Shown in pieces: positions 10,637-64,000 of a stretch of 64,000 nt of DNA (the first letter of the stretch is position 1; every line of letters begins with the position of its first letter). The translations under genes and the position numbers were made by a program. The DNA lies in contig CBDCTH010000012.1 in NCBI GenBank assembly GCA_965222155.1, positions 1,024,001 through 1,088,000 on the forward strand, given 5' to 3'. This DNA is from Gammaproteobacteria bacterium (lineage in GTDB: Bacteria; Pseudomonadota; Gammaproteobacteria; Eutrophobiales; Eutrophobiaceae). The notes under the pieces were generated by a model. It ran no database searches and had not been told where the DNA came from. It worked only from the letters and a program-made list of their open reading frames with translations.

Positions 10637-10680
10637 AGTATCAGGAGTCCGATCGTATAAACAGAAAAATACTGATTTCA

Positions 10681-44731: not shown

Positions 44732-44743
44732 GTTTCTCACGCA

Positions 44744-46000: not shown

Positions 46001-46013
46001 ATGGGAGCCGAAC

Positions 46014-46265
46014 ATGTTGTTGATAAAATGTCCATGGTGCGGCGCACGCGACGAGAGTGAATTCAGTTACGGGGGCGAAGCCGATATCACCCGGCCGGCC
46101 GAACCGGATGCTCTGACCGATGAGGAATGGGCGGATTACCTGTTCATGCGCAGCAATACCAAGGGCCTGCACCGGGAACAATGGGTGCATGACCAGGGTT
46201 GCCGCCGCTGGTTCGTGCTGGAAAGGGATACCGTCAGCTATCAGATAACCGAGGACGGGGGATAG
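46014..46265 (+). CDS. soxD: Sarcosine oxidase delta subunit
   Basis: CPWCG.RDESEF.YGGEA...W.H..GCRRWF. Confidence 0.95.
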   Translation: MLLIKCPWCGARDESEFSYGGEADITRPAEPDALTDEEWADYLFMRSNTKGLHREQWVHDQGCRRWFVLERDTVSYQITEDGG

Positions 46266-46327
46266 AGGAAAGATGACAGAAAACAGAAGACATGGAATCT
46301 ACATCCATGCGCCAGGTAGTAATACCA

Positions 46328-46485
46328 CGTCATTACTGCGTCCCCCGGCGTCATTCCTGCGCCCCCCGGCGTCATTCCTGCGCCCCCCGGCGTCATTCCT
46401 GCGCAGGCAGGAAGCCAGTGGACAACTTATTCCTTATCATATGAAGGGTTGCTTACTGGATTCCAGCTTGCGCTGGAATGACGGC
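46328..46485. repeat. REPIN-like element with 21-bp tandem x3 at the left arm, inserted between soxD and soxA
   Basis: CGTCATTMCTGCGYCCCCCGG x3 then CGTCATTCCTGCGCAGGCAGGAA...CTGGATTCCAGCTTGCGCTGGAATGACGG. Confidence 0.85.
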
Positions 46486-46530
46486 AGAGAGTGATGCACT
46501 CATTCATTATCGAGTTCAGGAAGCGGGAGT

Positions 46531-49545: not shown

Positions 49546-50125
49546 ACCGCAAAGACGGCACGCCCTGTCCTCTTTCCTCAAAGGGAAGATTGCACCCGGT
49601 CCGGATAACGCAGGCGTGACGCTGGAAGTACGACCCGATTTCGGCTACCTGAACCTGCGCGGCAACCCCGGCGATGAACAGTTTCTGCAGGCGCTGCAGG
49701 CAACGCTTGGACAGCCCCTGCCCACCAATGCCAATACGTTTACTGTCGGAGAAGACACAACTTACTGGTTAGGTCCCGATGAGTGGTTGCTGGCCACAGG
49801 ACTTGGCAAGGAAAGCGGCATAGCGGAACACCTGGGGAAAAGCCTGTCAGGTCAATGCTACTCCCTGGTCGATGTGACCGGCGGACAGGTTTTACTTCGA
49901 CTGGGCGGCAGTCATGCCCGGGAGGTACTGGCGCAAGGCTGTACCCTGGACCTGCATCCGCGCGCATTCAAAGTAGGCCAATGCGCACAGACCACCCTGA
50001 CAAAAACGTCCATGCTGATCGCCCTGATCGATGACGCACCGACCTTCGATATCATTGTCCGCCGTAGTTTTGCCGAATATGCGGCACTGTGGCTGCACCA
50101 CAGTGGCAGTGTCATTAATGGATAA
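49535..50125 (+). CDS. soxG: Sarcosine oxidase gamma subunit
   Basis: WLGPDEWL, DLHPRAF..GQCAQT, RRSFAEY. Confidence 0.94.
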   Translation: MPHRPQRRHALSSFLKGKIAPGPDNAGVTLEVRPDFGYLNLRGNPGDEQFLQALQATLGQPLPTNANTFTVGEDTTYWLGPDEWLLATGLGKESGIAEHLGKSLSGQCYSLVDVTGGQVLLRLGGSHAREVLAQGCTLDLHPRAFKVGQCAQTTLTKTSMLIALIDDAPTFDIIVRRSFAEYAALWLHHSGSVING

Positions 50126-50134
50126 TGAGGAGTC

Positions 50135-50201
50135 AGATACGAGGAAGCGCTTTTTTCAGCATGTCCCGTAGATAGGCAGCATCCCTGTCTTCAAGCTGCA
50201 T
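50135..50201 (-). pseudogene. HEPN/DUF86 toxin N-terminal stub
   Basis: MQLEDRDAAYLRDML overlapping the MNT stop, then lost. Confidence 0.55.
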
Positions 50202-50466
50202 ATAAAAGCTCCATGTCTTTCTCTATCTCACGACGACGGTAGGGATTATTCAAGATCGCCGATGTTACGATATCCACTTTACGACCGCCAAACAATGAAC
50301 TGAAAGCATTTTTGATGACCGTTAGGCCTCCCAGAGAAGGGACCATACCCTGTTCAAATTCGACCAGTAAATCGATATCGCTTGAAGGCGTTAATTCCCC
50401 ACGAGCGGCAGAGCCGAATAATATCAGTTGCTTGATATGATAATGTTTAGCTAATTCTGCCAACAC
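50191..50466 (-). CDS. Minimal nucleotidyltransferase (MNT antitoxin)
   Basis: LFGSAARG...SDIDLLVEF...RKVDIV. Confidence 0.88.
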   Translation of the reverse strand: MLAELAKHYHIKQLILFGSAARGELTPSSDIDLLVEFEQGMVPSLGGLTVIKNAFSSLFGGRKVDIVTSAILNNPYRRREIEKDMELLYAA

Positions 50467-50472
50467 GATACG

Positions 50473-50814
50473 CTAAACGGAAGCGAGCTCTCCCGGCAAT
50501 AAAATATCCTCATTGTCAGCGGCTGTGTACGACCCTTTGGAGTCAGCAAGCGCATTCTGAGATTTCCGGTTTATCTTGTGATTAACTGGCCGAATAATCA
50601 CATCGAGTCCCAGCGCTTCCAGCGCTTTCAAAATCTTGCCGATCTCTGATGTTTCCTTACCGCGCTCAAACTCCGATAAAAATCGTATGCCGGGGCCGGC
50701 CAGCTCACTTGTTGTTTTAAGGGTTAGTCCACGGGCTTTTCTGTGTCTGCGAACAAGGCTACCCAGTTCTTGCGTATTTCGAATCCGATCGTAGTAAGCA
50801 GGTTCATCTGTCAT
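50473..50814 (-). CDS. XRE/HipB-like HTH protein, in frame with MNT across one TAG
   Basis: LG..VR..RK..GLT.....LAG.G.RFLSE.ERGK. Confidence 0.85.
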   Translation of the reverse strand: MTDEPAYYDRIRNTQELGSLVRRHRKARGLTLKTTSELAGPGIRFLSEFERGKETSEIGKILKALEALGLDVIIRPVNHKINRKSQNALADSKGSYTAADNEDILLPGELASV

Positions 50815-50827
50815 AATTAAATATAAT

Positions 50828-50900
50828 ATTTATCCCGAGCAGGAATAAATATAACATAGATTGACGTTATATCAATAAAAAATAATCAGTACGGGATAAT
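50828..50900. promoter_or_regulatory. HipB-type operator-like palindromes upstream of the HTH gene
   Basis: TTTATCCCGAGCAGGAATAAA and TAATCAGTACGGGATAA. Confidence 0.4.
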
Positions 50901-50967
50901 TATAAAATAACAAGAATTCGATTGCCGCTCTCAGCGGAGTTCTCGAATAGGGCAGAACGGGAGTGAC

Positions 50968-51253
50968 TATGTTTTGTAAGCCCGCGCCACTGCTGCAGTA
51001 ACGGCCGCATGCGCCCCGGTCTCAAGCAACGTGCCGTGAGCGCTCAGGAGTTTGTCGAACTGCCATTTGAGCAATCGTTCTCGGCATTCAAGCGTATCGG
51101 ATTCACAAGTATGAGTTCGTCGTTATGACGCACTATTGCCATATTGCGGCTGATGCGCATCACAGCATTCATCTTCAGGCTGCCGCGGGCCATGTAAACG
51201 TCAGGCGCAATTTCTGAAATATCGTTGTGCGGGTAGGCGGGCGCAAAGGTCAT
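50968..51253 (-). pseudogene. DUF4336-like protein, internally deleted (copy 1)
   Basis: N-terminus MTFAPAYPH...RNMAIVR..L..VNPIRL joined to C-terminus LLSAHGTLLE. Confidence 0.6.
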
Positions 51254-51566
51254 TTTTGCTTGTTCGTATTGACGATCTGAGTTATTAAAACAATGGCAAT
51301 ACCGATTACTGTTATCCCAATTGCTGACACTGTATGATTTACATCACTTTCCAAGAAATAGGTCAGGGCGAACGCATACTTTAGAATCCGGGTTATCGTC
51401 ATTCCGGCGCAGGCCGAGTAGTGGCACATAGCCTGCCCCTGCAGGCTGTAAGCAGGGGGATGTGCCGTCAACGGAGCGTAGGATGCAAATCCAGTCGAAA
51501 AAGACGGTTCCTTATGGTAGAAGGTTGGTTTGTTAACTGGATTCCGGCCTGCGCCGGAATGACGAA
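51113..51566. repeat. Long direct repeat, copy 1 (copy 2 at 55598-56024)
   Basis: Near-identical apart from the 28-bp insert and about 2 SNPs. Confidence 0.9.
51430..51457. repeat. Palindromic micro-insertion (copy 2), absent from the duplicate at 55914
   Basis: GGCACAT[AGCCTGCCCCTGCAGGCTGTAAGCAGGG]GGATGTGCC vs GGCACATGGATGTGCC. Confidence 0.9.
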
Positions 51567-51567
51567 C

Positions 51568-51790
51568 CATGTAATTCAGGACATGTAATTCAGGACACCC
51601 ATATAATTCAGGACACCCATATAATTCAGGATACCCATGTAATTCAGGACACCCATGTAATTCAGGACACCCATGACCCATGTAATTCAGGACACCCATG
51701 TAATTCAGGACACCCATGTAATTCAGGACACCCATGTAATTCAGGACACCCATGTAATTCAGGACACCCATGTAATTCAGGACACCCATG
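51568..51790. repeat. 18-bp tandem array (CATGTAATTCAGGACACC) with 12 cores
   Basis: Direct count; two partial units; a single copy also at 53247-53265. Confidence 0.95.
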
Positions 51791-51837
51791 AAACATTGAT
51801 CGCCGGATTCCTGCTTGCGCAGGAATTGCTGTTTCCT

Positions 51838-52050
51838 TCCGCCACTCCCGAAGAAATCTGGGTCATCCTGTTCACGGTATACCAGCAGGTCTACAAGGGT
51901 AAACAGATCTATGGCGCCGTGGCGTATTTGCAGGCGGAGCAGGAAGTGGAAGTCTGTGCGCAATGGCAGGGCCTGTTCGTCGTCCGCACCACCGGCAGCA
52001 GCACGAGCATTATCAATGATGCGGGGTTTGTGCCCCGGGTGTTCGGCTGA
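51838..52050 (+). pseudogene. Internally deleted paralog of the 9648..10403 coiled-coil PD-(D/E)XK gene
   Basis: ATPEEIW.IL joined directly to YKG..IYGAVAYL...GLFVVR.TGSS.SIIN.AGF.PRVF. Confidence 0.75.
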
Positions 52051-52074
52051 TTGACGCGGAACACTCATAAAATA

Positions 52075-52285
52075 GGGACATGTTTACCCCTGTATGTGGC
52101 AAACAGGGGTTGAAACCTGACGTTGCTGAATCGTCTTCTCTTTTACCCCCGTCAATAAACTTCACATTCTCGATCACGTCGGCCAGGTGACGGAACCCGC
52201 GTAGCCAGCGCCAGTTCTTCTCCGCACACAATCCTAGCTTATAGACCATTGTCAGCAGGGTGGTGCGGCTGGGCAGGGACTGCAA
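52075..52285 (-). mobile_element. IS256-family transposase C-terminal remnant
   Basis: SRTTLLTMVYKLGLCAEKNWRWLRGFRHLADVIENVKFIDG. Confidence 0.75.
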
Positions 52286-52289
52286 TGTC

Positions 52290-52557
52290 ATCCATTTACC
52301 TATTGACATACACCCTTACCGATGTCGATGACAATACCATTGACGGCACCGGTGAAATAAACCGTAATACTGTCGGCAACCCGACCCCGGAGTTACGTGG
52401 CAGCCTGGGTTTGGACACATCACTCACCATAGGCGTGGTGAATGCGACAGACGAAGCCCCACCGTTTGTGGCCGTTTCTGGCAGCTATGACCCCCCGCAC
52501 CGGCGACCCGCGGGGAGGAGAATCTACGTAAAACTTGGAACAACGTCCGATTTTTAA
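52290..52557 (+). pseudogene. TonB-dependent receptor C-terminal fragments
   Basis: YLLTY...P.LRGSLGL / LTIGVVNATDEAPPFV...YDP...GRRIYVKL. Confidence 0.55.
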
Positions 52558-52607
52558 CCCGTATTCCTCTTTTCAGGCTCATTTCATGTTGAACAATGCT
52601 GTTTCTT

Positions 52608-52874
52608 TCAAAAAAGGTCCGCGTGTGTTCCCGTCCGGCGCAGGACCAGAGACCTGTCATCGATCTCGTAGATTAAAATCCAATCCGGGCCAACATGCGC
52701 ATCCCAGGCGTACTCATACTTCCCGGACAGTTTATAAGGCCTGGCGCTCGGCGGCATTGGCCGGCTGGTGGCCAGCACCTCGACAAATGCCTCGAGCTTT
52801 TGTAAATTCCAACCTCGTTTTTTGATCAGTCTGTAGTCTTTGAGAAAACGATTGGTATAGGAAATCTCCCGCAT
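52608..52874 (-). CDS. yafQ: YafQ/RelE family toxin
   Basis: F.KDY....KRG...L.G.Y....DAHV.PDWILIY......RTGTHADLF. Confidence 0.9.
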   Translation of the reverse strand: MREISYTNRFLKDYRLIKKRGWNLQKLEAFVEVLATSRPMPPSARPYKLSGKYEYAWDAHVGPDWILIYEIDDRSLVLRRTGTHADLF

Positions 52875-52876
52875 AT

Positions 52877-53146
52877 CTACCCGGCGTCACTCCGTGCATC
52901 AAGATCGGCGAAGAGCTCCCTGGTGGAGCTGAATCGCTGCAGGCCATTCGCGGGCTCCTCCAAGGCTGCAACGGTGTCGACATTGGGGATACGCGCCTCG
53001 AAAGGCAACCCGTTGCGCATGACCAACTGGCGCAACGCCATGCGGATAAACTCCGTGGGTTTCAGTCCAAGTTGAGCGAGTACGGCCTCGGCTTCAGCCT
53101 TCAGTTCCGGCTCCAGTCGGATTTGCATCTGTTCGGTTTTCATCAT
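52877..53146 (-). CDS. dinJ: DinJ/RelB family antitoxin
   Basis: IR.EPELKAEAEAVL..LGL....IR..L.Q.....GLPFE...PN..T..ALEE. Confidence 0.9.
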   Translation of the reverse strand: MMKTEQMQIRLEPELKAEAEAVLAQLGLKPTEFIRMALRQLVMRNGLPFEARIPNVDTVAALEEPANGLQRFSSTRELFADLDARSDAG

Positions 53147-53348
53147 GAGGATACCTCGTGTACGTTCTTACAGGGAACAGTCTAGGCGATCTTGCTACCA
53201 TTTGCAATACAATATTCAGGTTCGGTGTTGCCATTCTGAGAGTGTAAATTCAGGACACCCATGTATTTTACAATGGTGCGCAAGGCGTGAATGTGACGCG
53301 GTTGATTACCGGAAAGCAGGCGGTTGTTTTACGTTACATTTAGCCGAA

Positions 53349-54240
53349 TCAATGAATATGTTCATGCACCACAGTTTTTAATTCGTCTTCAAGAAGATTA
53401 GCCGCTTGTTTTAGCTGCGCAATAAACTTTCCGCCGACTTGGGCGGCGGCCGCCATTTGGATATCACCCGGCCTCAGACCTTTTAATACCTCAAGTACGC
53501 CCGCAGCCTGTTCCATATCTTTTCGGCTTTTTGCCGCCAGCGCCGCCGGCCGCCGTTGTGAAACAACCAGTTTATGCAGTGCAAAACGGGCAGGGTCGGG
53601 TATGCGTATCAGCAAACCTGAACCGACGGGGACGCAAGCAGGCTGGTTATCTCCGATCAAATAATCCAGGAAACGTACCGGCTCGGCGGCCACGTTCAGG
53701 CCTTTTATCATGACCGGTTTGTTTGATGGCCTGCCGCGCAGGGGCGTCAGCATCGATACGGTCAGGTTCTGGTTTCTTAATCCGAACCTGGTTGACGGCT
53801 GCCTCGAATCAAGACCGGGAACGGCGAGCACTCCTTTGTCCGCTTGCTGCAGTATCTCTTTAACATCCATTTCGATTGGAGGTGATGCAATGGTAATGGT
53901 CTGATCCTGAGCAATATCGATGTCTTGTGTTTGCCCCATGCTCCGTGTCCATTGCACACACAGCATATTGCCGATATGGAGAAAGGCATGCGTACCCACA
54001 ATGACCGCACCTGCTTCAAAGAGGCCGGATTGAGCCAGGACTTCATAGATGCGCCCTTCAGCAGGAGTTAATGTATGTAGTCCGGTTGCGACACATGTTG
54101 CAACGAGGCGTTCCCGTTCAATCCGATTTGGCTTGTCATCACGCTGTCTCTGGCTGGCCTTTTCTACCAGTTTACGGGTTTCCTCCGTATCCTTTCCGAT
54201 ATAGCAGGAACGTTTGTTCCTCCCTACGGTATATTGCAGG
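53349..54240 (-). pseudogene. GSU2403-like nucleotidyltransferase-fold gene, 5'-truncated by IS
   Basis: Frame open up to 54240; VGTHAF, TQDIDIA, PDPARFALHKL, KD..QA. Confidence 0.75.
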
Positions 54241-54427
54241 CAGCAATTCCCGCTAACGCCTGAGACGTACTGAAATCCTTATCAATACAGGGATTTTACA
54301 GGGGTTAAAAAAGTGTTCGTAAACGTTTCATGTTGATTCAGTCTAGTAGCAGGAATTAGTCAAGTCAAAGGTGACCCATCCTGTCCCGTCCTGCTCTGCG
54401 CAAGACCCTGAGCGCCCCCGGTTTGTC

Positions 54428-54518
54428 AGGATATTTGGGGTCAGAGTAAAAATACAGTCAGTTTGGCAAGTGGTAGTGGCTTGTTGTTGAGTATTTTTAC
54501 TCTGACCCCAAATATCCT
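54428..54518. repeat. 91-bp element with perfect 28-bp inverted arms inserted in the transposase
   Basis: AGGATATTTGGGGTCAGAGTAAAAATAC ... GTATTTTTACTCTGACCCCAAATATCCT. Confidence 0.85.
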
Positions 54519-54694
54519 TCAAGCTATCAACGATGACACGGTCGGTCGGGGTTTGACCCTGGCGGATTACCTGCTGTCGGGGTTGGCGGTGTTCGGCTTG
54601 ACGTATCCATCGTTGTTGCAGTTTGACCGGGGTCGGGAGGACGAGTTGGTGCGGTCGAATCTGCGGTCGTTATACGGGATAGGGCGGGCCCCAG

Positions 54695-54723
54695 AGCCTG
54701 CCCCTGTATGGCGTTGAGCAGGG
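54695..54723. repeat. Palindromic micro-insertion (copy 3)
   Basis: AGCCTGCCCCTGTATGGCGTTGAGCAGGG frameshifts the AP.DT motif of the transposase. Confidence 0.8.
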
Positions 54724-55516
54724 GGACACGGCCTTGCGGGCACGCGTGGACGCGCTGGCCCCCGCGGGGTTACGGCGTGCCTGCCGGCGGGTGGTTCAGG
54801 TGCTACAACGGGGCAAGCTGCTGGAAGACGTTCTCTGGTGGGGCGGTCACTACCTGTTGTCGGTGGATGGGACCGGGTAGTTTCAGTCGGACACGGTGCA
54901 TTGCGAGCAGTGCTGCGAGCGGCAGCACCGGGACGGGCGGGTGAGTTGGTATCATCAGTTAATACCCTGAAGCACCCAGGCGACCACGTTGAGCATACCC
55001 TCCAACACGGCTATCAGCACCTGTCCACGGTGCTGGCCTACCTGATGAGGCTGGCGTGTCTGATTGACCCGGTGCAGCAGCATTGCTGCGGGCTGTTTCA
55101 ACAGGGGGTGGCGAAGCGGGGCTGCAAGCGTGACGTCCGGGAGACACTGCGCAGCGTCTTCTGCACCTGGCTGGTGCCGGACTGGGAGACGTTGTATCGG
55201 GCCCTGGCCTACGGTGTATCGCCTACGGTGGTGGCGCCGTATGATACCGCTTGAGGACGGGCCGGGGTCGAGTAGTTCAAGGTGGGGGACTTCAGGGGAA
55301 GCCAAGCCACATCAACATAACCGGGGATAGCCGGCGGGTCGCGTATCCCCTGAGGGTCGGGTCACGGTGAAAAAAACGAACCTGACCCGACAATATAACC
55401 AGCTGATAAAGTTAACAGGAGCTGCTGGTCAACAACTAATATACTGTACGGTATATAATTTGTTGATATAAGATTGCAGAATTTATCCTGGCTCCCGAAC
55501 GGGGCCAGAGGAGTAA

Positions 55517-55738
55517 TTACTTTTTGTAGACCTGCTTTACTGCAGCCGTAACAGCGGCATGCACCCCGGTCTCAAGCAACGTGCCGTGGGCGCTCAGGAG
55601 TTCGTCGTTATGACGCACTATTGCCATATTGCGGCTGATGCGCATCACAGCATTCATCTTCAGGCTGCCGCGGGCCATGTAAACGTCAGGCGCAATTTCT
55701 GAAATATCGTTGTGCGGGTAGGCGGGCGCAAAGGTCAT
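55517..55738 (-). pseudogene. DUF4336-like protein, internally deleted (copy 2)
   Basis: Larger deletion than copy 1, joined at GAGTT microhomology. Confidence 0.6.
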
Positions 55739-56024
55739 TTTTGCTTGTTCGTATTGACGATCTGAGTTATTAAAACAATGGCAATACCGATTACTGTTAT
55801 CCCAATTGCTGACACTGTATGATTTACATCACTTTCCAAGAAATAGGTCAGGGCGAACGCATACTTTAGAATCCGGGTTATCGTCATTCCGGCGCAGGCC
55901 GAGTAGTGGCACATGGATGTGCCGTCAACGGAGCGTAGGATGCAAATCCAGTCGAAAAAGACGGTTCCTTATGGTAAAAGGTTAGTTTGTTAACTGGATT
56001 CCGGCCTGCGCCGGAATGACGAAC
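55598..56024. repeat. Long direct repeat, copy 2
   Basis: Matches 51113-51566. Confidence 0.9.
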
Positions 56025-56272
56025 TGAGTTATACAGCTGGTTTTCTATTCTTGACGGCCTGCGCCGGAATGACGAGATCAGGGCAACCAGGGCTTTCAAT
56101 TCAACTTTGATTTCATTACCGGTGATGACGTTCCAAGACGGGCATTCGTTGCGGGGGCAGTCAAGGGAGAGTCCCTGTATTTGATGTTCTATCAGGCAAC
56201 AAGCCTTTACTACTATGACAAATACCTGCAAGACGTGATGACCATGGCCGCTGGCATGAAATTAAATTAACA

Positions 56273-57076
56273 ATGAAAAGAGTTTTATACTTATTACTTT
56301 CGGCAGCTTTAATTTCAAACAACGTTTACGCGGAACAACGACTTAGGTTGGCCACGACCACCAGCACGGAAAATTCGGGTCTGCTGTCCCTGTTGCATCC
56401 GCCTTTTGAAGAGCGGCACAACGTCATGGTGGACGTGATCGCCGTCGGCACCGGCAAAGCCCTGCGCCTGGGCAGGAACGGTGACGTGGACCTGGTCATG
56501 GTCCATGCCCCTGCTGCGGAGCGGGAGTTCGTTAACAGTGGATTTGGCGTGGAACGCCTGACCGTCATGCACAATGATTTTATCCTGGTCGGTCCCGCTG
56601 CAGATGCGGCAGCCGTGAACGCGGCAAGTTCCCTGGCAGACGCCATGACGCGCATCGCACAATCCGCTACCGGTTTTATCTCGAGAGGGGATGATTCAGG
56701 GACCCACATGAAGGAAATGGCTCTCTGGCAGGCGGCTCGGATCAGTCCGGAGGGGGCATGGTATCTGTCTGTAGGACAGGGTATGGGCGCCGTATTGAAA
56801 ATCGCCGATGACAAGCTGGCGTACACACTGACCGACAGGGGGACGTACCTGGCATTTATCGGTAAAATAGAGTTGGCTATCGCCTATGAAGGCGCGGCGG
56901 AGTTACTGAATCCCTATCACGTTATCATCGTAAACCCCGAAAAACATCCCCATGTCCAAACGACTCTGGCGCAGAAATATGTGGACTTCATCCGGGGAGA
57001 GGAGGGCCAGCGTATTATTCGCGAATTCAGGATTTCAGGCGAGCAACTCTTCATCCCTGACGTTGTTTCTCCGTGA
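56273..57076 (+). CDS. tupA: Tungstate ABC transporter substrate-binding protein
   Basis: LATTTSTENSGLL, VGTGKAL, SRGDDSGTH.KE, YTLTDRGT, LLNPYHVI. Confidence 0.9.
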   Translation: MKRVLYLLLSAALISNNVYAEQRLRLATTTSTENSGLLSLLHPPFEERHNVMVDVIAVGTGKALRLGRNGDVDLVMVHAPAAEREFVNSGFGVERLTVMHNDFILVGPAADAAAVNAASSLADAMTRIAQSATGFISRGDDSGTHMKEMALWQAARISPEGAWYLSVGQGMGAVLKIADDKLAYTLTDRGTYLAFIGKIELAIAYEGAAELLNPYHVIIVNPEKHPHVQTTLAQKYVDFIRGEEGQRIIREFRISGEQLFIPDVVSP

Positions 57077-57081
57077 GAGAA

Positions 57082-58356
57082 TCAGGCACTTTGCTCCTTT
57101 TCCGGCGCCAGCGGGTCGCCCAGGTCCGTTTCATCCATCGCCTCGGCCACGATAACCTGTGAGGTCTGCATCATGACTGTCATGCCATGGGATTGCTCCT
57201 CAGCGGTAATGGGCGCTCGCACCGACATTCGGTACAGGGTGAACAGCGCCATGAACAGATAAACCAGGGCCACGAAGTAATACAGGCTGCCCGGACCGAA
57301 GAACTTCATCATCTGGGTACTGAGTATGGGACCTGTTAACCCACCGATTCCGTTTATGAAAATAATGCAGCCGCTGGCCGACAGGATTTGTTCGTTGCGT
57401 ACGTGGTCGTTGATGTGGGACAGGCACACCGAATAAAAACACAAGACCACCCCGCCCACCAGGAACAACAGGCCGGCCAGCAGCCACAGGTTGCCCAGGC
57501 GCGCGGCAAACGGCACGAACAGGCTTGCACCGGCAGCCAGGACTGATAATAACAGCAAGGTATGACGGCGTTCCTGGCGATCAGACAACCTGCCGACCGG
57601 CAGCAATAACACCAATCCTCCGAACATCAGGATGCCTACCAGCAAGGCGCTTTCGGCAACGGAAAAACCACTCTGGTTGCCGAATACCGCGGTTAACCAC
57701 ATCACTGCGCCGAAGGTAAGTCCCTGGACAAAGACACCCATGGCTCCCAGAGGAGTCAGCCTGATCAGCCTGCTTAGCTCAAGGTGCTCCGCGTACGCGA
57801 TCGCAGGGGCGGAAATATTACTCAGCAACATGGGCACGATAGCGATGGACAGCACCACGGAGGCAAGGATAAATAACTCGAAACTCAGGGGGGAGGCCAG
57901 ATTTATCAGGAATTGTCCGCCAGTGAAGCCAAGGGTGATAGTGAACATGTAGGCAGCCAGCAGGCGTCCCCGATTGTCGTTGCCGGTGATGGCGTTCAGC
58001 CAGCTTTCCGAGACCATGAACAGGCCGGACAGACAAAAGCCGGTGAGCATTCGGAACAGGAACCACATCACCGGGTTTATAACGGCAGAGTGCAACAGGA
58101 TAGCTACGGACGCTATCGAAGCCAGCGCGGCAAACACGCGGATATGTCCCACCTGTTTCACCCACCTGGGCACAACCCGGGCGCCCAGGAGGAAACCGAC
58201 GTAATAGGCGGACATGATGAGTCCGATAGTGTCCACAGCAAAGTCTTCCAGGGATGCCCTGATCCCCAGCAGCGTGCCTTGCATGCCGCTACACACGGAA
58301 ATCAATGCAACGCCGAACAGCAGGCTCCAAACCAGTATAATCTGTGGTTTTTTCAT
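57082..58356 (-). CDS. MFS transporter (YcaD-like)
   Basis: VGHIRVFAA, ESWLN, G.LSD...RR; about 12 TM segments. Confidence 0.88.
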   Translation of the reverse strand: MKKPQIILVWSLLFGVALISVCSGMQGTLLGIRASLEDFAVDTIGLIMSAYYVGFLLGARVVPRWVKQVGHIRVFAALASIASVAILLHSAVINPVMWFLFRMLTGFCLSGLFMVSESWLNAITGNDNRGRLLAAYMFTITLGFTGGQFLINLASPLSFELFILASVVLSIAIVPMLLSNISAPAIAYAEHLELSRLIRLTPLGAMGVFVQGLTFGAVMWLTAVFGNQSGFSVAESALLVGILMFGGLVLLLPVGRLSDRQERRHTLLLLSVLAAGASLFVPFAARLGNLWLLAGLLFLVGGVVLCFYSVCLSHINDHVRNEQILSASGCIIFINGIGGLTGPILSTQMMKFFGPGSLYYFVALVYLFMALFTLYRMSVRAPITAEEQSHGMTVMMQTSQVIVAEAMDETDLGDPLAPEKEQSA

Positions 58357-58559
58357 TTGCTGACCTGTATGTTTCAAGAGTGATTGCCCGATTAATCTGC
58401 TTCGATAAGTTCAAGGGTGGTTTCTGTTACCTGTTCACCGGCAAGTGGCGCGATTGTCCGCTAATTTTATAGATAGTCAAGCACAATCAATGGGTAGCTT
58501 TACGGTGTGTTCGGGGTTATAGTGTTGCGGGGGAAAAACTCACAACAATCAGATATATA

Positions 58560-60116
58560 GTGCTATCCCGCAAGCAATACGACAGCCGTTATACGGTCGG
58601 ACAGGACAACGTCCGCATCTTCAGGATGGAGTTACATAACCCGGTATTTTTTATCACTGCATTTCTCACCATCAGTTTTGTTGTAGGGACGTTGTCGTTC
58701 CCCCAGTATGCCAAAATCATACTTGAGCAGGCAAAGAACTGGTCCATTGAAAATTTCCATTGGCTGGTGATTATTTCGGGCAATTTCTTTGTCTTCTTCT
58801 GCATGATGCTGATCGTGCTACCTTGCGGCAAAATACGGCTGGGTGGAGAAGCGGCGAAACCCGAGTTTTCCAGACCATCCTGGTTTTCCATGCTGTTTGC
58901 CGCCGGGATGGGCATCGGTCTGATGTTCTGGTGCGTCGCCGAGCCGGTTGCCTACTACACGAACTGGGCCGGTACGCCGTTAAATGTACAGCCACATTCG
59001 CCTGAAGCTGCTGCCGTCGCGATGGGAGCGTCGCTGTATCATTGGGGATTGCATCCCTGGGCTATCTTTGCTGTGGTGGCACTGTCCCTGGCCTTCTTTT
59101 CTTTCAATAAAGGGTTACCATTGGCGCCCCGCTCTATCTTCTATCCGTTGTTCGGCGAACACTGCTGGCGCTGGCCGGGCCATCTCATTGATATGGTGGC
59201 TGTCTTCGCTACCATTTTCGGTCTGGCCACTTCCCTTGGACTGGGAGCAAAACAGGCCACCGGGGGACTACACTCCGTATTCGGCGTTGACAACGGCTTG
59301 ACGACACAGTTGATGCTTATCGCCGTGATCACGACAATAGCAATTATCTCGGTCATGCGCGGCCTGGATCGGGGTGTCAAGGTATTGAGCAACTTCAATA
59401 TACTGGTTGCCTTGCTGCTCCTGGTGTTCGTTATCAGCGCCGGCCCCACCTTGTCGGCTCTTTCCGGTATCGGTGAGAATCTTTCACATTATCTGACGTA
59501 CTTCATCCCCTTGAGCGACTGGGTCAGCCGGGAGGACGAGGTATGGTACAAGAGCTGGACCGTGTTCTACTGGGCCTGGTGGATATCCTGGTCGCCTTTT
59601 GTCGGCCTATTTATCGCGCGTATTTCCAGGGGCCGTACAGTCAGGGAATTTGTGACGGCTGTATTGTTATTGCCGACCCTGGTCAGTGCCATCTGGATGT
59701 CGGTTTTTGGCGGCATTGCACTGGACCAGGTCCAGCTCGGTATAGGTGAGTTGACCAACGGCATTGATGATCCCTCCCTGGCGCTCTTCCACATGCTGGG
59801 AAACCTGCCGTTTACAACCATGGCATCACTGGTTGCAGTGGTACTGGTGCTGACTTTTTTTATTACCTCAGCCGATTCCGGCTCCCTGGTCGTGGACATT
59901 ATCACCGCCGGGGGACGGCTTGATACTCCCCGTTACCAGCGCGCTTTCTGGGCGATACTGCTGGGTCTGATTGCGGCGGCCTTGCTCATCGGCGGCGGCA
60001 GCGACGCCTTGAGCGCGTTACAAGCCGGCACCATCACCATGGCCGTGCCGTTTACCGTGGTGCTACTCCTTTCCTGCCTGTGCCTGGTACTGGGCCTGTT
60101 GTCTGAGTCCTATTGA
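58560..60116 (+). CDS. BCCT family betaine/choline/carnitine transporter
   Basis: SWFSMLFAAGMGIGLMFW, HWGLHPWA, WTVFYWAWWISWSPFVGLFIARISRGRTVREF. Confidence 0.95.
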   Translation: MLSRKQYDSRYTVGQDNVRIFRMELHNPVFFITAFLTISFVVGTLSFPQYAKIILEQAKNWSIENFHWLVIISGNFFVFFCMMLIVLPCGKIRLGGEAAKPEFSRPSWFSMLFAAGMGIGLMFWCVAEPVAYYTNWAGTPLNVQPHSPEAAAVAMGASLYHWGLHPWAIFAVVALSLAFFSFNKGLPLAPRSIFYPLFGEHCWRWPGHLIDMVAVFATIFGLATSLGLGAKQATGGLHSVFGVDNGLTTQLMLIAVITTIAIISVMRGLDRGVKVLSNFNILVALLLLVFVISAGPTLSALSGIGENLSHYLTYFIPLSDWVSREDEVWYKSWTVFYWAWWISWSPFVGLFIARISRGRTVREFVTAVLLLPTLVSAIWMSVFGGIALDQVQLGIGELTNGIDDPSLALFHMLGNLPFTTMASLVAVVLVLTFFITSADSGSLVVDIITAGGRLDTPRYQRAFWAILLGLIAAALLIGGGSDALSALQAGTITMAVPFTVVLLLSCLCLVLGLLSESY

Positions 60117-60166
60117 TGGGGAGCGGTTGACGGCGTTGGCAGTTCAATTACCTTATGGAAGTACTG

Positions 60167-60379
60167 ATGAAGTACGAAATCGTCCTTCGCAAATCTGATG
60201 GAGGCAATAGCGTTTCAGTGCCTGGCCTGCCAGGTTATTGGTTGCAGGGAGAGACGGAAGATGAGGCGATTGCAAATATTGAGACGGCGATATGTGAATA
60301 TCTTGATGCCAAGGAGATTGACTTGTTCCCCATTTGTGGTACATTATCTGTTAATGAAAAAGGAGGTGTCCATGGCTAA
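60167..60379 (+). CDS. hicB: HicB-like antitoxin, orphan (possibly degraded)
   Basis: VSVPGLPG...QGETEDEAIANI..AI.EYL; no hicA adjacent. Confidence 0.7.
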   Translation: MKYEIVLRKSDGGNSVSVPGLPGYWLQGETEDEAIANIETAICEYLDAKEIDLFPICGTLSVNEKGGVHG

Positions 60380-60629
60380 GACAGAAACAATCCGTGCCCG
60401 TGTTGAACCGCGGTTGAAGTGCCAGGCCGAAGAGGTCTTCTCGGAGATCGGGCTGTCGCCAACCGAAGCGATTACGCTGTTTTATACGCAGGTAACCCTG
60501 CACCAGGGTTTACCGTTCGTCGTGAAGGTTCCCAATGCCGAGACCATCGAAGCGCTACGTCAGGCACGCTCAAGAGAGGGGCTTACTGAATACACCGACC
60601 TGGACGACCTCAAAGTCAGGCACGGCTAA
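60372..60629 (+). CDS. dinJ: DinJ/RelB family antitoxin
   Basis: IRARVEP.LK.QAE.VF..IGLS.TEAI.LFY.QV....GLPF.VK.PNAET. Confidence 0.9.
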   Translation: MAKTETIRARVEPRLKCQAEEVFSEIGLSPTEAITLFYTQVTLHQGLPFVVKVPNAETIEALRQARSREGLTEYTDLDDLKVRHG

Positions 60630-60631
60630 TT

Positions 60632-60675
60632 CATGCGCCTGCTCACCACGAATCACTTTAAAAAGGATATCATAT
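60632..60675 (+). pseudogene. YafQ/RelE toxin N-terminal stub
   Basis: MRLLTTNHFKKDI then homology is lost. Confidence 0.55.
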
Positions 60676-60725
60676 GTGCAGAATTCAACGTTACCTTGTT
60701 CAGAAAAAGCACAGGGCAGGTAGCG

Positions 60726-60800
60726 TCAGACACTTAAGCTTGAGGTCACAGTCTGTGACCTCAAGTGGTCAAATTTTTCCTTGTCGAACCAGTTAGGGAT
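60726..60800 (-). pseudogene. ORF6N-domain fragment
   Basis: EKFDHLRSQTVTSS, encoded by palindrome 60739-60765. Confidence 0.45.
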
Positions 60801-61060
60801 ATTTGAGTTTTTTTGAAGAATGTAGAAGCTCAATCCATGAGGCCATTATCACTTCATTTTATACGATAACAAATTTGTGCGTTGTGAGAGGATGTTCCGG
60901 GTTGGGCGGCAGGTATTGTATTTCTTCTTCCTCCGCTTTTGGCGTAGGTAATTCGTAGAGACCGCTAACTTCGATATATTGCTGGTATTGCTTTTTAACC
61001 TGTTCCAGAGTTTCCAGGTAATCGTCTAAAGCTGTTCTTTTCAGTCACTACAATCAAATC

Positions 61061-62011
61061 CTAATCAAATTTTATTTCTGTTGAAACGTCTGCAATGTTC
61101 TTGTGGTGTTCTTTACGCAGGGCCTGTTTCCACGCGCGATGCTGTGCCTGCTTATATTGCCATTCCCGGTATTGGCGATTGGCCTCGTCTGCCGCTAACA
61201 GGAGTGTTTCGCGATGATACTTCTTGACTTCATCAATGGTTGTTCCAGCCAGAATCACAGTGGCATTATTAATACTTGCGATTCCAGGACGATGCATACT
61301 AGTCCACTGGGGAGGGTGGTTCCAACTGGCGATGAACAGACTCTCCCATTCCGCAGGTGGCTGGCGAGAAAGGGCGAAGGGAATAGTGTACAGAGCACTT
61401 CCAGGGGTACCGTCGTTACGCGGTTCCGTAATATCTTCCACGATTACGTGCGTAATTTTGATGTCCTCAAAGTCTGGACTCCGATTAGTGTTGCGATGCG
61501 CTACTTTTGGTTGTTGGGTCGTGTTGGGATTGACTGTTGCCATCGGCTCTCCAATTGGCGGCGCGGTCTCGCGGCTACCTAGTAATGTACAAAGTAGGTC
61601 ATCATAATCCTGTTTACGATAGGGGTTAGTAGAAAGATCAATGTAGTATTTCCCAGCAAGCCAAGATGGTGCGGCCTCGTCCCAATCGCCGCTTCGTAAT
61701 ACTGGAATAAACTTCCGATTGTTCTGCTTGGTCATGACTTCTGCAGTCATAATGTCCCCCTCGTAGCCTACACCACCCAGGCGTTCGTCTGAGCGGCTCT
61801 TATAGCGAGGTGTGCAGATTATGACAATGAACCAGTTGTCGCGAATAGCTCGCTCCATAAAGGCGGGTAGCTGATCTCCAGGGGCCGTGTGCCATCTATC
61901 GAGAGTGACGTTGACACCGTCTTTGCGAAGACGCCCAGCAAGCGAGCGGACCCACTCTTTGTGAATCTCATTGTCCCATGAGTAAGAAATGAATGTCGGT
62001 GGAGAAGTCAT
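61061..62011 (-). CDS. TIR/SEFIR-domain protein with uncharacterised C-terminal domain
   Basis: FISYSWD..HKEWV..LA..L...G..V.LD.W...PGD.L..FME...ICTP.Y.....GGVGYE. Confidence 0.88.
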   Translation of the reverse strand: MTSPPTFISYSWDNEIHKEWVRSLAGRLRKDGVNVTLDRWHTAPGDQLPAFMERAIRDNWFIVIICTPRYKSRSDERLGGVGYEGDIMTAEVMTKQNNRKFIPVLRSGDWDEAAPSWLAGKYYIDLSTNPYRKQDYDDLLCTLLGSRETAPPIGEPMATVNPNTTQQPKVAHRNTNRSPDFEDIKITHVIVEDITEPRNDGTPGSALYTIPFALSRQPPAEWESLFIASWNHPPQWTSMHRPGIASINNATVILAGTTIDEVKKYHRETLLLAADEANRQYREWQYKQAQHRAWKQALRKEHHKNIADVSTEIKFD

Positions 62012-62014
62012 AAT

Positions 62015-62986
62015 TCAATCATTCTTTATCGAGTCTTCGTTACAGTCCTCTACCGAGGTATCTGCAGAACTCTCGCAAAGTGGAGTGTCAAGCGTATTTT
62101 CTTGGCGATTATCACCCTCATGTCCGTGTATATCATTTAATGTCGTAAAATTATCTGAACCATCTGCCTGAATGGCGTATTGGAATCGGACTTCGTCCTT
62201 GTTATCACCTCGTGTATCATCCTTGATTTCAATCACATGCACGGCAGCATAGAAGCCTTTTACATTCCGCAATACGAATGTTTCCCCGCATTGGGGAGTC
62301 CGGACATGCGACGAATAGTCCAACGACTCAGCATTCGATATCTGTACGATGGACGTACATCCTTTGGCTAACGCGACACCGTTAATCAAAAGAGGGTCAT
62401 TGTAAACATGGATGCTTTTGTCACTCGCCTTACTCCATTTCGTTTCAAATTCAAGCTCTCCATGACCGATAACGTAGCGGCCATTATGATTACTGTAATC
62501 GAATACTGCCTCGCCAGATAGTGACGTCATTCGCGGGGGTGGCAGATCCGACGCCTTACCCTCAAAATGCTTGACTCCAAGCTTTTCGGCGATCATTGCT
62601 GCAAGTGTCGCAGGCTGATGATCACAGGCCCATTCGTACTTGATGGAGGTCGGCAAACCTGGGACGGACGTTTCGTCAAAGCGTACTGGCAGAATATACT
62701 CTTCTTTCTGTTGGATTGCTCGACTTAAACTTGATTGTCTTTCATGACTTGGCCAAGCCTTTTTAACGTACTCCTCGGAAATGAACATTACGACATAAGC
62801 AGCCCTGTTTTCGAATACGTCATGTAATTCTTCTACGAGGTTTTTTCCCCAGAGTTGGATGGTCTCGAATTCGTCGTAGAATACGGAGATTTTTTGGCTC
62901 TGAAGTGCCAGCGCCACATCTTCAACATATTTACGCTGTTCGCCAGCGAAGGATAGTGCTACTTCATATTTTATGTTTTCTTTCAT
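62015..62986 (-). CDS. TIR-domain protein with uncharacterised C-terminal beta-rich domain
   Basis: YEVALSFAGEQR.YV, VFYD, LWGKNL, FIS.EY..K.W..HE (catalytic Glu position), ILPVRFD. Confidence 0.9.
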   Translation of the reverse strand: MKENIKYEVALSFAGEQRKYVEDVALALQSQKISVFYDEFETIQLWGKNLVEELHDVFENRAAYVVMFISEEYVKKAWPSHERQSSLSRAIQQKEEYILPVRFDETSVPGLPTSIKYEWACDHQPATLAAMIAEKLGVKHFEGKASDLPPPRMTSLSGEAVFDYSNHNGRYVIGHGELEFETKWSKASDKSIHVYNDPLLINGVALAKGCTSIVQISNAESLDYSSHVRTPQCGETFVLRNVKGFYAAVHVIEIKDDTRGDNKDEVRFQYAIQADGSDNFTTLNDIHGHEGDNRQENTLDTPLCESSADTSVEDCNEDSIKND

Positions 62987-63090
62987 CAATCAATTCTCCT
63001 TACGTTTTTTCCCTCCCGATCAATGCAGTCGTCACCCGTATTTTCTTCAGTTAATTCACGGTTAGCGGTGATGTGTGGGTATCAATCTTA

Positions 63091-64000
63091 TCAATGAGCT
63101 AAATACGGTCTGACATCTGCCTTCCTCATTGGTCTTTCCTTAACCTCAAAGTTAATTTCGAGAATGCACGGGACAGGCTCCGGTACGTTGTCGCCCCGTA
63201 GCTCTCCTTCCAGTTTTGTGATCCCACCCCTTGATCCAATGAGAAGTGCGCTGGTCGTCCAAACTTCGTCGCGAGGTCTAATATCGCCGAAGTCGATAGT
63301 AATCTTCCACCCGTCAGTAAATTCTTGGACATAGGGATCGGGATTGCTCTGAAGTTGTTGTGCAAGCGGGACGATATCTGAATACGCTCCTTCCATACTA
63401 TTACGATATGGACGCGTTGGTCGATTAGTCCGATCTAGGAGAAAAATAGTATTGTCTTTGGTAACTGAGCCGATGAAACGAATACGTTTTCCGACTACCC
63501 CGCTGTGATTATATAGCCGTAGGTGAAAAGATTTGAGGAAAGCCATATCACGGGTATACCGAATAATCTCCTTAGAGTAGTTTTCATTATCAAGAGCAAG
63601 GCGCGGAAGAAAGACAGGGGAGGGGCGAGGAGACTCAAACGTGTCATCCGGGAGTAATGGGCAGAGAATCAAGGAGTTTACGGTGTGGGGGGAAAGAAGA
63701 GCAGTATGTCTTTCTACATCCGCCCACTCAAGAACGAATTGAGGCGTGTCGTCAAAATTCTGATCCGCACCCATTCGCGCAACCTCGTCCGGGGAGGCAA
63801 TCGCTGTCGAACTACCGTCCCTTTTGTAGACAACATTATTCTCAAGCTTACCAAACCGTTTTTTGAGGTAGATAGGGCGCTCCTGTATCGGTATCACAAT
63901 CACGCCAATTTCCACATCCCCTGTACGAAATGGTTGGTACGAGAACTCAATAGGTCGTTGGGTCTTCGCGTTTACAAATTGATGTAATTTAGCGTCGTCC
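63091..64000 (-). CDS. Schlafen/AlbA_2-domain protein, 5' end outside window
   Basis: Frame open to the window edge: DDAKLHQFVNAKTQRPIEFSY...IGVIVIP.QERPIYL...VYKRDGSST..ASPDE. Confidence 0.75.
   Translation of the reverse strand, partial: DDAKLHQFVNAKTQRPIEFSYQPFRTGDVEIGVIVIPIQERPIYLKKRFGKLENNVVYKRDGSSTAIASPDEVARMGADQNFDDTPQFVLEWADVERHTALLSPHTVNSLILCPLLPDDTFESPRPSPVFLPRLALDNENYSKEIIRYTRDMAFLKSFHLRLYNHSGVVGKRIRFIGSVTKDNTIFLLDRTNRPTRPYRNSMEGAYSDIVPLAQQLQSNPDPYVQEFTDGWKITIDFGDIRPRDEVWTTSALLIGSRGGITKLEGELRGDNVPEPVPCILEINFEVKERPMRKADVRPYLAH

Follow-up and report, generated by a model that had tools for sequence, protein, structure and literature searches.

A probable small defence island of three independent sensor-effector proteins: a pSlfn5-type Schlafen, a TIR-Bct protein and a bSEFIR-like protein

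Organization of the locus

The window, that is, the whole stretch of 64,000 nucleotides that was analysed, ends in three ORFs on the minus strand, genes A, B and C, which run from 61061 to beyond 64000 in the ORF calls and are co-directional, as the original prediction had described. The genes, their parts and the adjoining features are listed below.

63091 to >64000, minus strand: gene A, with 302 codons inside the window and the 5' end cut off; 381 aa in full
62990 to 63090, minus strand: intergenic gap between A and B, 101 bp, with AAGGAG at 63001-62996
62015 to 62989, minus strand: gene B (TIR-Bct), 324 aa from a TTG or 323 aa from the ATG at 62986
62639 to 62962, minus strand: TIR domain of gene B, AbTir/BtTir-like, residues 10-117
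62132 to 62545, minus strand: C-terminal all-beta domain of gene B, here called Bct, residues 149-286, without a Pfam family
62018 to 62131, minus strand: acidic tail of gene B, residues 287-324, modelled as disordered and reaching the stop codon 3 bp before gene C
61061 to 62011, minus strand: gene C, a short bSEFIR-like protein, 316 aa
61595 to 61996, minus strand: SEFIR/TIR domain of gene C with the GGVGYE motif, residues 6-139
61064 to 61519, minus strand: C-terminal region of gene C, residues 165-316, unnamed
60155 to 60629, plus strand: flanking, overlapping antitoxin genes, HicB-like (60155-60379) and RelB (60366-60629)

Upstream of gene B, the AAGGAG sequence precedes the 62986 ATG by 9 nt, and a consensus scan of the A-B gap returned neither a promoter-like nor a terminator-like site. 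The predicted spacing of 3 bp between the two TIR genes is exact, counted from the gene B stop to the gene C ATG. Gene C lacks an evident Shine-Dalgarno sequence and the scan showed nothing terminator-like at the B-C junction, so that B and C are probably expressed together. The cluster had also been called AT-richer than the metabolic core, which is true only mildly: its GC content is 0.473 (whole window, 0.518), a value that 11.6% of windows of this size do not exceed. Searched by megablast, positions 60900-64000 matched neither plasmids nor E. coli genomes. The window has no tRNA and positions 50000-64000 have no Rfam match, which leaves the cluster without an integration-site tRNA or an RNA component. 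Two small ORFs adjoining the cluster were checked and had no Pfam match. The HicB-like/RelB antitoxin pair, which has no intact toxin gene, is context that lies outside the defence genes.

Gene A: a Schlafen nuclease head with Ig-like domains

The full-length product of gene A is protein P0121 of the same genome (381 aa), 79 codons of which lie beyond the window end. Its Schlafen/AlbA_2 head spans residues 16-145, and residues 80 onward fall inside the window. The Schlafen/AlbA assignment made from the window was marginal on the in-window part alone (AlbA_2, E 0.025, below the Pfam cut-off) and became solid with P0121, which matches AlbA_2 PF04326 over residues 16-145 (Pfam, 2.8e-13). The Ex4DxK motif reads E16-GATL-D21-F-K23 in P0121, outside the window, and its residues E16, D21 and K23 are kept in 73, 72 and 73 of 74 aligned sequences. 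Residues ~165-381 make up two Ig-like beta-sandwich domains. The AlphaFold model (pLDDT 85) has as its top Foldseek matches in the PDB the integrin alphaX and alphaV ectodomains (E 3e-6), and the AlbA_2 structures 3lmm and 2kyy are also returned. Neither Pfam on P0121 nor Foldseek revealed a nucleotide sensor of the Rossmann, SLOG, macro or SAVED type. The head is better conserved than the tail (74% vs 53%), and a close relative is 78% identical.

A tblastn search recovered four plasmid homologues of gene A. Three of them (WP_004764982.1, WP_012599511.1 and WP_013954435.1), with 32.5-33.5% identity over 98-99% of gene A, are assigned to the pSlfn5 group by supplementary file 21 of PMC13056530, and the gene A family HMM scores these three at 7e-96 to 8.5e-78; the fourth (NZ_CP017887.1) is absent from supplementary file 20 of the same paper. 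Judged by its sequence and its predicted structure, gene A is a pSlfn5-type protein. Full membership of PDC-S50 was rejected, as this PADLOC profile aligns only over positions 6-146 of 387, the nuclease head.

Gene C: a bSEFIR-like protein

The N-terminal domain of gene C matches TIR_2 (3.8e-21) above SEFIR (2.6e-14) when scanned against Pfam with hmmscan. Against PDB sequences, the SEFIR domain of Bacillus cereus, 5y8e, is found at 1e-21 and the best TIR, 3h16, at 7.6e-4. The PADLOC bSEFIR model PDLC03957 matches at E 4.7e-65 (219 bits), aligning residues 1-213 of gene C to profile positions 35-251 of 412. The model is covered over 53% of its own length, with profile positions 252-412 unmatched and the last 103 residues of gene C outside the match. 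Within GGVGYE, the putative catalytic residue E84 is present in 63/63 aligned sequences. The C-terminal region is conserved across a ~313-aa family, whose other members have N-terminal extensions, and is unrelated to Bct; an ESM Atlas search with the gene C tail gave no usable match. A close relative is 98% identical. By its match to the model over residues 1-213, gene C can be classed as a bSEFIR-type protein.

Gene B and the Bct domain

The TIR domain of gene B matches Pfam TIR_2 at 2.6e-15. Among solved structures it lies nearest to BtTir and AbTir, and its predicted fold is also closest to these two (Foldseek TM-score 0.79 on target). AbTir and BtTir make cyclic ADPR isomers. Further fold matches include the TIR domains of Brucella BtpA/TcpB. 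The Glu motif of gene B is W79..H82-E83, in which E83 lines up with the Glu of the W..YE motif and is invariant (83/83 aligned sequences). The two TIR genes do belong to different subtypes, with gene B nearest BtTir/AbTir and gene C nearest the SEFIR structure 5y8e, and the catalytic-type Glu motifs are retained in both, as had been proposed.

The PADLOC matches of gene B, namely PDC-S66, ThsB1 and RT-TIR, involve the TIR domain only. The ThsB1 match is weak (1.4e-5), and gene C has no ThsB match. A full assignment to PDC-S66 was rejected, the alignment being confined to positions 144-240 of 282, the TIR part. A weak Pfam match to NADase_NGA (E 0.0024) fell below the cut-off and partly over the acidic tail, and was dropped as unreliable. 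TIR-Bct was not met in the literature on SEFIR, Schlafen and PDC candidates, where this nameless domain was not a search target.

Gene B has 2104 relatives, mostly of ~286 aa, and the family spans phyla with unusually high conservation (60-77% identity). Longer relatives (405-454 aa) carry assorted N-terminal fragments, such as DUF1156 and DUF2513, and no consistent additional domain. The 38-residue acidic tail of gene B has no counterpart in 18 fully aligned relatives, three of which extend 3-6 residues past the family end. Gene B therefore looks as if it ends in a recent junction and not in an evolved coupling to gene C.

The Bct domain is found in 877 clusters at 50% identity, together with TIR_2, SEFIR, kinase, caspase, deaminase, PNP, AbiH, metallophosphatase, AbiJ_NTD4, AAA_21 and pentapeptide partners. 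Among these, the PD-T4-6-like kinase, the AAA_21/HEC-01A-like ATPase, AbiH, caspase and PNP are typical defence effectors. This partner pattern fits a sensor module that would be swapped between effectors. Bct also co-occurs with cadherin, PKD, matrixin and CsgG-like segments, and so need not be a dedicated immune sensor. Protein P0395 is a natural SEFIR::Bct hybrid that matches the bSEFIR model over positions 33-328, and hybrids of this kind show that the gene B and gene C families exchange parts. In the gene B family, Bct is conserved like the TIR domain (69% vs 66% identity to the window protein), which is unusual for a sensor of a phage protein. It may read a conserved infection cue or a host-derived cue, not a fast-evolving phage protein.

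The C-terminal domains of B and C differ, in agreement with the original prediction. A shared tail was considered and rejected, since gene C is not matched at E<=10 by a Bct profile even when filters are off, and a BLASTP comparison of the two proteins stays at E 0.71 or worse. When the whole gene B model is submitted to Foldseek, the TIR domain dominates the matches; SPARTA TIR-APAZ entries are superposed at an rmsd of 23-26 Å, which makes them uninformative on Bct. The best ESM Atlas score for Bct, 0.82, is to unnamed clusters and is a lead at most.

Genomic neighbourhoods

We compared the surroundings of the three families in other genomes, and the synteny expected of a single system was not conserved. 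Within ±8 kb of gene B family members, tblastn and family HMMs found relatives of A or C at 0/79 loci. The four plasmid loci of gene A homologues hold neither of the other families (0/4), and no TIR gene is seen there by annotation or HMM. Likewise, 0/4 plasmid loci of SEFIR proteins hold the A or B families; two of these four carry a full-length homologue of gene C, and both of these homologues stand alone.

The commonest neighbour of gene B relatives is an HExxH protein (184-222 aa, without a Pfam match) encoded 13-158 bp downstream at 9 of the 79 loci. It was rejected as a conserved partner, all nine loci being from Dehalococcoidia, and the small gene that follows the Croceicoccus homologue of gene B is unrelated to it. 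At one locus (L001) two gene B paralogues lie in tandem, which shows that stacking of TIR genes occurs. The flanks of gene B relatives are rich in restriction-modification, Avs2, DruE and HerA genes. A PADLOC match at <=1e-30 was found in the flanks of 19/36 sampled loci and in 21/71 flanking ORFs, compared with 2/37 for the control set, which consisted of other window ORFs and not of random genes matched by genome (Fisher p=0.003). UvrD-like helicases, perhaps housekeeping, account for three of the 21 flank matches, and p is 0.017 without them.

Interpretation

It is likely that the cluster is a small defence island of three independent single-polypeptide sensor-effector proteins and not one cooperative system. 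The original prediction had offered two readings, a TIR-signalling system with a Schlafen effector or a stack of sensor-effector fusions, and the evidence backs the latter. Its view of the cluster as one undescribed system fails for A and C because of their matches to named systems and the lack of co-occurrence. Two of the three genes most likely belong to already described kinds: gene C is tied to bSEFIR by PADLOC, and gene A to pSlfn5 by the published listing of its homologues. Gene B gave no such match to a named system, and the TIR-Bct family, for which no tie of this kind was made, is the sole part of the cluster that is possibly new.

The analysis itself shows the domain composition, the conservation of catalytic residues, the family assignments, the missing co-occurrence, the defence genes nearby and the movement of Bct among effectors; the triggers, the oligomerisation-driven activation and the reaction products in the following scheme are what we infer for the three proteins. 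On binding a phage protein through its C-terminal Ig-like domains, gene A would activate its Schlafen nuclease at the N terminus, which would then cut tRNA and stop translation. In gene C, infection would be sensed by the C-terminal region, upon which the SEFIR domain at the N terminus would self-associate and hydrolyse NAD+. In gene B, the Bct beta domain would sense a trigger and cause the AbTir-like TIR domain to oligomerise and to cleave NAD+ via E83. B and C would be co-transcribed and translationally coupled for no other reason than the packing of two cassettes.

That packing could also be given a functional meaning, with B and C as a two-gene operon whose two NADase sensors form a joint assembly or serve as backup for one another, with A independent. 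The 3-bp gap, the absence of a separate ribosome-binding site for C and of a terminator-like site between the genes, the tandem paralogues at L001 and SEFIR::Bct hybrids such as P0395 are all compatible with such an operon. However, the pairing is not conserved at any of the 79 gene B loci, the two full-length plasmid homologues of C stand alone, and the tail that bridges B to C is without a counterpart in the fully aligned relatives, all of which makes a functional operon unlikely.

Gene B might instead have no anti-phage role, with a TIR domain directed against other cells or a eukaryotic host, or with a housekeeping function related to NAD. We regard this as very improbable. The Brucella BtpA/TcpB fold matches, the typically extracytoplasmic cadherin, PKD, matrixin and CsgG-like parts found with Bct, and the unusual conservation across phyla are what one could cite for it. 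They are opposed by the strong PADLOC matches in the flanks of about half of the sampled loci, by the many Bct partners that are typical defence effectors (AbiH, PD-T4-6-like kinase, caspase, PNP, AAA_21/HEC-01A-like ATPase) and by the position of gene B here, between two defence genes.

A Thoeris-like three-gene system, in which two TIR sensors make an NAD-derived signal for Schlafen A as the shared effector, is barely credible: the tight co-directional packing, the AbTir and BtTir likeness of gene B and the existence of signal-activated prokaryotic Schlafens, such as Cash, in which a Csx15 sensor of cA4 is joined to the Schlafen, are outweighed by the Ig-like domains of gene A, which are of the protein-sensing kind and come without a nucleotide sensor domain, by the assignment of its homologues to pSlfn5, for which activity as a single gene in response to a protein has been demonstrated, and by the absence of A or C relatives from all 79 gene B loci and of TIR genes from all four plasmid loci of gene A.

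Returning to the reading as three independent proteins, gene B may represent a large, cross-phylum and uncharacterised single-gene defence family, TIR-Bct, in which Bct (~138 aa) would be a new, unusually conserved sensor module present on at least 10 effector types; we hold this part tentatively. If it is true, the window contains two NADase heads (TIR and SEFIR) with two different sensors on one transcript. For annotation, the region is best described not as a new multi-gene system but as a defence island with pSlfn5-type Schlafen, bSEFIR-like and TIR-Bct genes. Bct is the useful lead, since knowledge of its trigger would account for the activation of an entire set of effector fusions. SEFIR::Bct compared with SEFIR::other-tail proteins, and TIR::Bct compared with SEFIR::Bct, provide natural chimeras for the question of tail specificity.

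Comparison with known systems

Thoeris: The cluster resembles Thoeris in that its TIR proteins vary outside the TIR domain and are encoded by more than one adjacent gene. It differs in that no ThsA-type effector is encoded among the scanned window ORFs or as a conserved neighbour of gene B relatives. The predicted absence of a SIR2, macro or TM ThsA effector was borne out for the three genes and for 37 other window ORFs of >=150 aa (Pfam, E<=1e-10).

pSlfn5: This tested single-gene system senses a phage protein and cuts tRNA, according to a 2026 paper on bacterial Schlafens (PMC13056530). The same paper defines the prokaryotic Schlafen motif as Ex4(E/D)xK and reports that the pSlfn5 head is more conserved than the tail, which sets specificity. 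It also describes RorSlfn5 of Raoultella ornithinolytica, which is triggered by the tail assembly chaperone of T5-like phages and whose Ig-like part resembles integrin ectodomains (PMC13056530). The parts of gene A, a single gene of ~380 aa, are ordered as in pSlfn5, an N-terminal Schlafen/AlbA_2 domain with Ex4(E/D)xK being followed by integrin-like Ig domains, and its head is likewise more conserved than its tail. The listed homologues, however, are only ~33% identical to gene A, and the likeness to RorSlfn5 is by description.

bSEFIR: In the preprint by Millman et al. (10.1101/2022.05.11.491447), bSEFIR of Bacillus sp. NIO-1130 is a tested single protein that uses the SEFIR domain at its N terminus to deplete NAD+, and members are selected by an N-terminal SEFIR match that is stronger than the TIR match in HHsearch. 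Gene C shares the N-terminal SEFIR-type TIR domain, the model match runs past this domain to residue 213, and its full-length relatives at two plasmid loci are single genes. Gene C is shorter, however, with 316 aa against a 412-position model whose positions 252-412 are unmatched; its TIR_2 score exceeds that of SEFIR by Pfam, and it adjoins a TIR gene at 3 bp.

AbTir/BtTir-type TIR NADases: This group also includes the heads of SPARTA TIR-APAZ and TIR-STING proteins. Gene B differs from all of these in carrying Bct instead of APAZ, STING or a coiled coil, and in having no conserved partner gene. Its TIR domain is nevertheless nearest to AbTir and BtTir in both sequence and predicted fold, and the W..YE Glu is retained.

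Locus organization

Three minus-strand open reading frames (ORFs), A to C, occupy the final 3 kb of the window, and the other flank of the cluster holds two overlapping antitoxin genes, followed by a BCCT and then an MFS transporter. We use Bct for the unnamed C-terminal domain of the gene B product.

63091..>64000, minus: gene A, Schlafen/AlbA_2, 302 codons within the window
62015..62989, minus: gene B, TIR-Bct ORF
61061..62011, minus: gene C, bSEFIR-like ORF
60366-60629, plus: RelB antitoxin gene, overlapping the HicB-like gene
60155-60379, plus: HicB-like antitoxin gene, overlapping the RelB gene

Gene B is preceded by a good ribosome-binding site (AAGGAG, 9 nt upstream of the ATG at 62986). 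Co-transcription of the cluster is likely, judging from four signals: the stop codon of B is separated from the ATG of C by three bases; the start region of C lacks a clear Shine-Dalgarno sequence; a consensus scan of the minus strand from 60000 to 64000 returned no terminator-like site; and the promoter-like sites in that interval fall only within B and downstream of C. The cluster had been described as AT-richer than the metabolic core, which holds in direction, with a GC content of 0.473 versus 0.518 for the whole window, but the dip is mild, as 11.6% of same-size windows are equally low or lower. The lowest GC content among the stretches measured around the cluster is that of the spacer at 60630-61060 (0.413).

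No intact toxin gene accompanies the antitoxin pair. A 29-codon ORF after RelB (60634-60723, plus), with no Pfam match, may be a toxin remnant. Immediately downstream of C, a 61-codon open frame (60862-61044, minus), which has neither an ATG, GTG, or TTG start nor a Pfam match, may be what is left of the 3' end of a gene that was interrupted when the cluster inserted.

At a distance of some 47 kb, a second defence locus (10498-13902, plus) encodes a 1135-aa Type ISP/type IIG restriction-modification enzyme (PADLOC REase_MTase_IIG, E=0; Pfam Type_ISP_C, 6.8e-91), and an AAA_14 + DUF4143 ATPase at 21811-22926 (plus) matches the PADLOC candidate PDC-S01 (4.2e-43). Genes resembling dimethylglycine/sarcosine oxidase (DAO + GCV_T, SoxG; 42269-50122, plus), the BCCT betaine/choline transporter (58560-60116, plus), and several Rieske oxygenase genes (2045-5598 and 28102-29361) look like a region of quaternary-amine catabolism. 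An NTP_transf_8 nucleotidyltransferase ORF at 53352-53999 is followed, to 56270, by about 2.2 kb in which both strands carry nothing longer than short overlapping ORFs, possibly degraded or non-coding sequence.

No linkage of genes A, B, and C in the loci surveyed

The original prediction treated the three genes as a candidate undescribed anti-phage system; their distribution does not support a single system. A scan of genome contigs with the B alignment gave 194 matching stretches, 148 of them encoding a relative; the best 80 were kept, yielding 79 distinct B loci with up to 8 kb per side. Tblastn with A and C gave no match in these 79 loci, and neither did A-family and C-family profile HMMs across their 10,008 stop-to-stop ORFs, with the B profile found in 78 of 79. 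On plasmids, the other two families were absent, by annotation and HMM, from all four A-family and all four SEFIR loci, only two of the latter four carrying a full-length C homologue. With co-occurrence in 0/79 B, 0/4 A, and 0/4 SEFIR loci, the three genes are thus, as far as testable, unlinked elsewhere; the test is strong from the B side and thin from the A and C sides.

When every ORF lying up to 4 kb from B was clustered across the 79 loci, no neighbour family occurred in more than nine. The nine-locus family, confined to Dehalococcoidia MAGs, is a 184-222 aa protein with an HExxH motif. In these loci (L009, L019, L020, L032, L035, L037, L042, L049, and L075), the protein, whose HETVH motif is conserved, is encoded co-directionally, starting 13-158 bp after the TIR-Bct gene. 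No Pfam family covers it, and it could serve as a partner or regulator specific to this lineage.

Gene B and its defence neighbourhood

The TIR_2 domain of B spans residues 10-117, and among solved structures BtTir and AbTir are closest to B. E83, present in 83/83 B-family sequences, lines up with the W..YE glutamate of both, which we take to be the catalytic residue of these enzymes; both presumably make cyclic ADPR isomers. Residues 149-286 form the all-beta Bct domain, modelled at a pLDDT of about 80-95 and without a Pfam family, and residues 287-324 form an acidic tail, disordered in the model. None of the 18 relatives that were aligned over their whole length has a counterpart of this tail, and three of them extend 3-6 residues beyond the family end. 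The family comprises 2104 matches with identities of 60-77% over many phyla, and most of the 120 listed are about 286 aa. In a Latescibacterota MAG (L001), two full-length tandem B paralogues (5468-6397 and 7929-8864, about 1.5 kb apart) lie directly downstream of a type I methyltransferase/specificity ORF. At four loci (L020, L052, L070, and L076) the homologue is in two adjacent ORF pieces, which suggests frameshifted or decaying copies.

In about half of the loci sampled, B relatives lie near defence-type genes. From the 3.5 kb flanking B on either side we chose the longest ORF that reached 180 aa, and scanned these for the odd-numbered loci (71 of 149 ORFs, 36 of 78 loci). Of these 71 ORFs, 21 matched PADLOC models at E<=1e-30 (19 of 36 loci): type I, II, and IIG restriction-modification, Avs2, DruE, HerA, PD-T7-1, dCTP deaminase, PDC-S39, and UvrD/GajB-like helicases. 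The identical scan of other window ORFs, a rough control, matched 2 of 37 (a Type ISP restriction enzyme and a PDC-S01-like ATPase; Fisher's test, p=0.003, or p=0.017 without the three helicase matches in the B flanks).

Bct and apparent module shuffling

A Bct-only profile built from 41 sequences matched 877 clusters (E<=1e-3) in a 50%-identity library. Bct is mostly C-terminal, in proteins of widely differing length, and some proteins have 2-5 copies. Partner domains were surveyed in 80 of 150 listed proteins (Pfam, E<=1e-5): TIR_2 in 18; SEFIR + TIR_2 in 8 more; protein kinase, matrixin, cytidine deaminase, and pentapeptide repeats in two each; caspase, AbiH, PNP_UDP_1, metallophosphatase, AbiJ_NTD4, AAA_21, cadherin, PKD, and a CsgG-like segment in one each; 39 of the 80 had no Pfam match. 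PADLOC names for several Bct-linked heads were PD-T4-6-like kinase, HEC-01A/AriA-like ATPase, PDC-M60C, and PDC-S60. Bct equals the TIR head in conservation (69% vs 66%), and this, together with its occurrence in seemingly extracytoplasmic proteins, speaks against a simple role as sensor of a phage protein.

The Bct profile does not match window protein C. Natural hybrids that join a SEFIR head to Bct as the tail (P0395, L085 4419-5411, and L086 135-1343) are known from Croceicoccus and Prescottella plasmids and from the protein library, and match both the B and C family HMMs. P0395 (316 aa) has a SEFIR head 36% identical to that of C, and its match to the bSEFIR model spans positions 33-328. 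Because such proteins occur naturally, the window places a bSEFIR-like head (C) beside a tail (B) known from some bSEFIR-model members. The distribution of heads and tails fits the pattern expected from shuffling of sensor and effector modules.

Gene C

Residues 1-213 of C match the PADLOC bSEFIR model (4.7e-65), and matches to two crystal structures of Bacillus cereus SEFIR, 5y8e and 5y8f, reach about 1e-21. GGVGYE is invariant in the family, with E84 in 63/63 sequences. Family members are ~313 aa, conserved over their full length, and some carry N-terminal extensions; there are 2164 matches, the best 63-73% identical across phyla, and full-length homologues are found on Enterococcus and Lentilactobacillus plasmids. 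The last 103 residues lie outside the model match and received no name from any tool applied. In the preprint of Millman et al. (10.1101/2022.05.11.491447), a single-gene SEFIR-domain protein of Bacillus sp. NIO-1130 guards B. subtilis against phi29.

Gene A

The AlbA_2 match for the window part of A is marginal (E 0.025). A protein search retrieved the full-length product from the same genome (P0121, 381 aa), so only 79 codons lie outside the window. Here the Schlafen/AlbA_2 domain is clear (residues 16-145, 2.8e-13), and the residues of its motif, E16-x4-D21-x-K23, are present in 73/74, 72/74, and 73/74 aligned relatives, respectively. In the AlphaFold model (pLDDT 85), two beta-sandwich domains follow the nuclease head, and the closest PDB entries are integrin ectodomains, along with the AlbA_2 structures 3lmm and 2kyy.

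The study of Perez Taboada et al. 2026 (PMC13056530) defines prokaryotic Schlafens by an Ex4(E/D)xK motif and describes a group, pSlfn5, in which the nuclease is fused to an Ig-like sensor resembling integrin ectodomains. Its single-gene member RorSlfn5 guards E. coli against T5, cleaving tRNA when triggered by the phage tail assembly chaperone. Four plasmid-borne A homologues are 32-34% identical over 92-99% of its length; three appear in supplementary file 20 of that study, from which the fourth is absent, and all three carry the group label pSlfn5 ('pSlfn.Immunoglobulin-related...', 232 members) in supplementary file 21.

Proposed mechanism and relation to known systems

Most likely, A, B, and C are three independent proteins of the abortive-infection type, whose chemistry, triggers, and oligomerisation step we infer by analogy. 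First, binding of a phage protein to the Ig-like domains of A would switch on its tRNase. Second, B would be activated through Bct, leading to NADase activity or production of an ADPR isomer. Third, C would be activated through its tail, again leading to NADase activity.

Gene B appears to be a TIR sensor-effector fusion, a general kind already known, in which the sensor domain has no name. Gene C is best described as a short variant inside the bSEFIR model family, from which it differs in having its own tail, the model matching residues 1-213 only. Gene A, given its pSlfn5-classed homologues and matching domain make-up, belongs to a described single-gene kind and is, by these sequence features, a new pSlfn5 member. 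Conservation is higher in its head than in its tail (74% vs 53% identity to the window protein), as PMC13056530 reports for pSlfn5.
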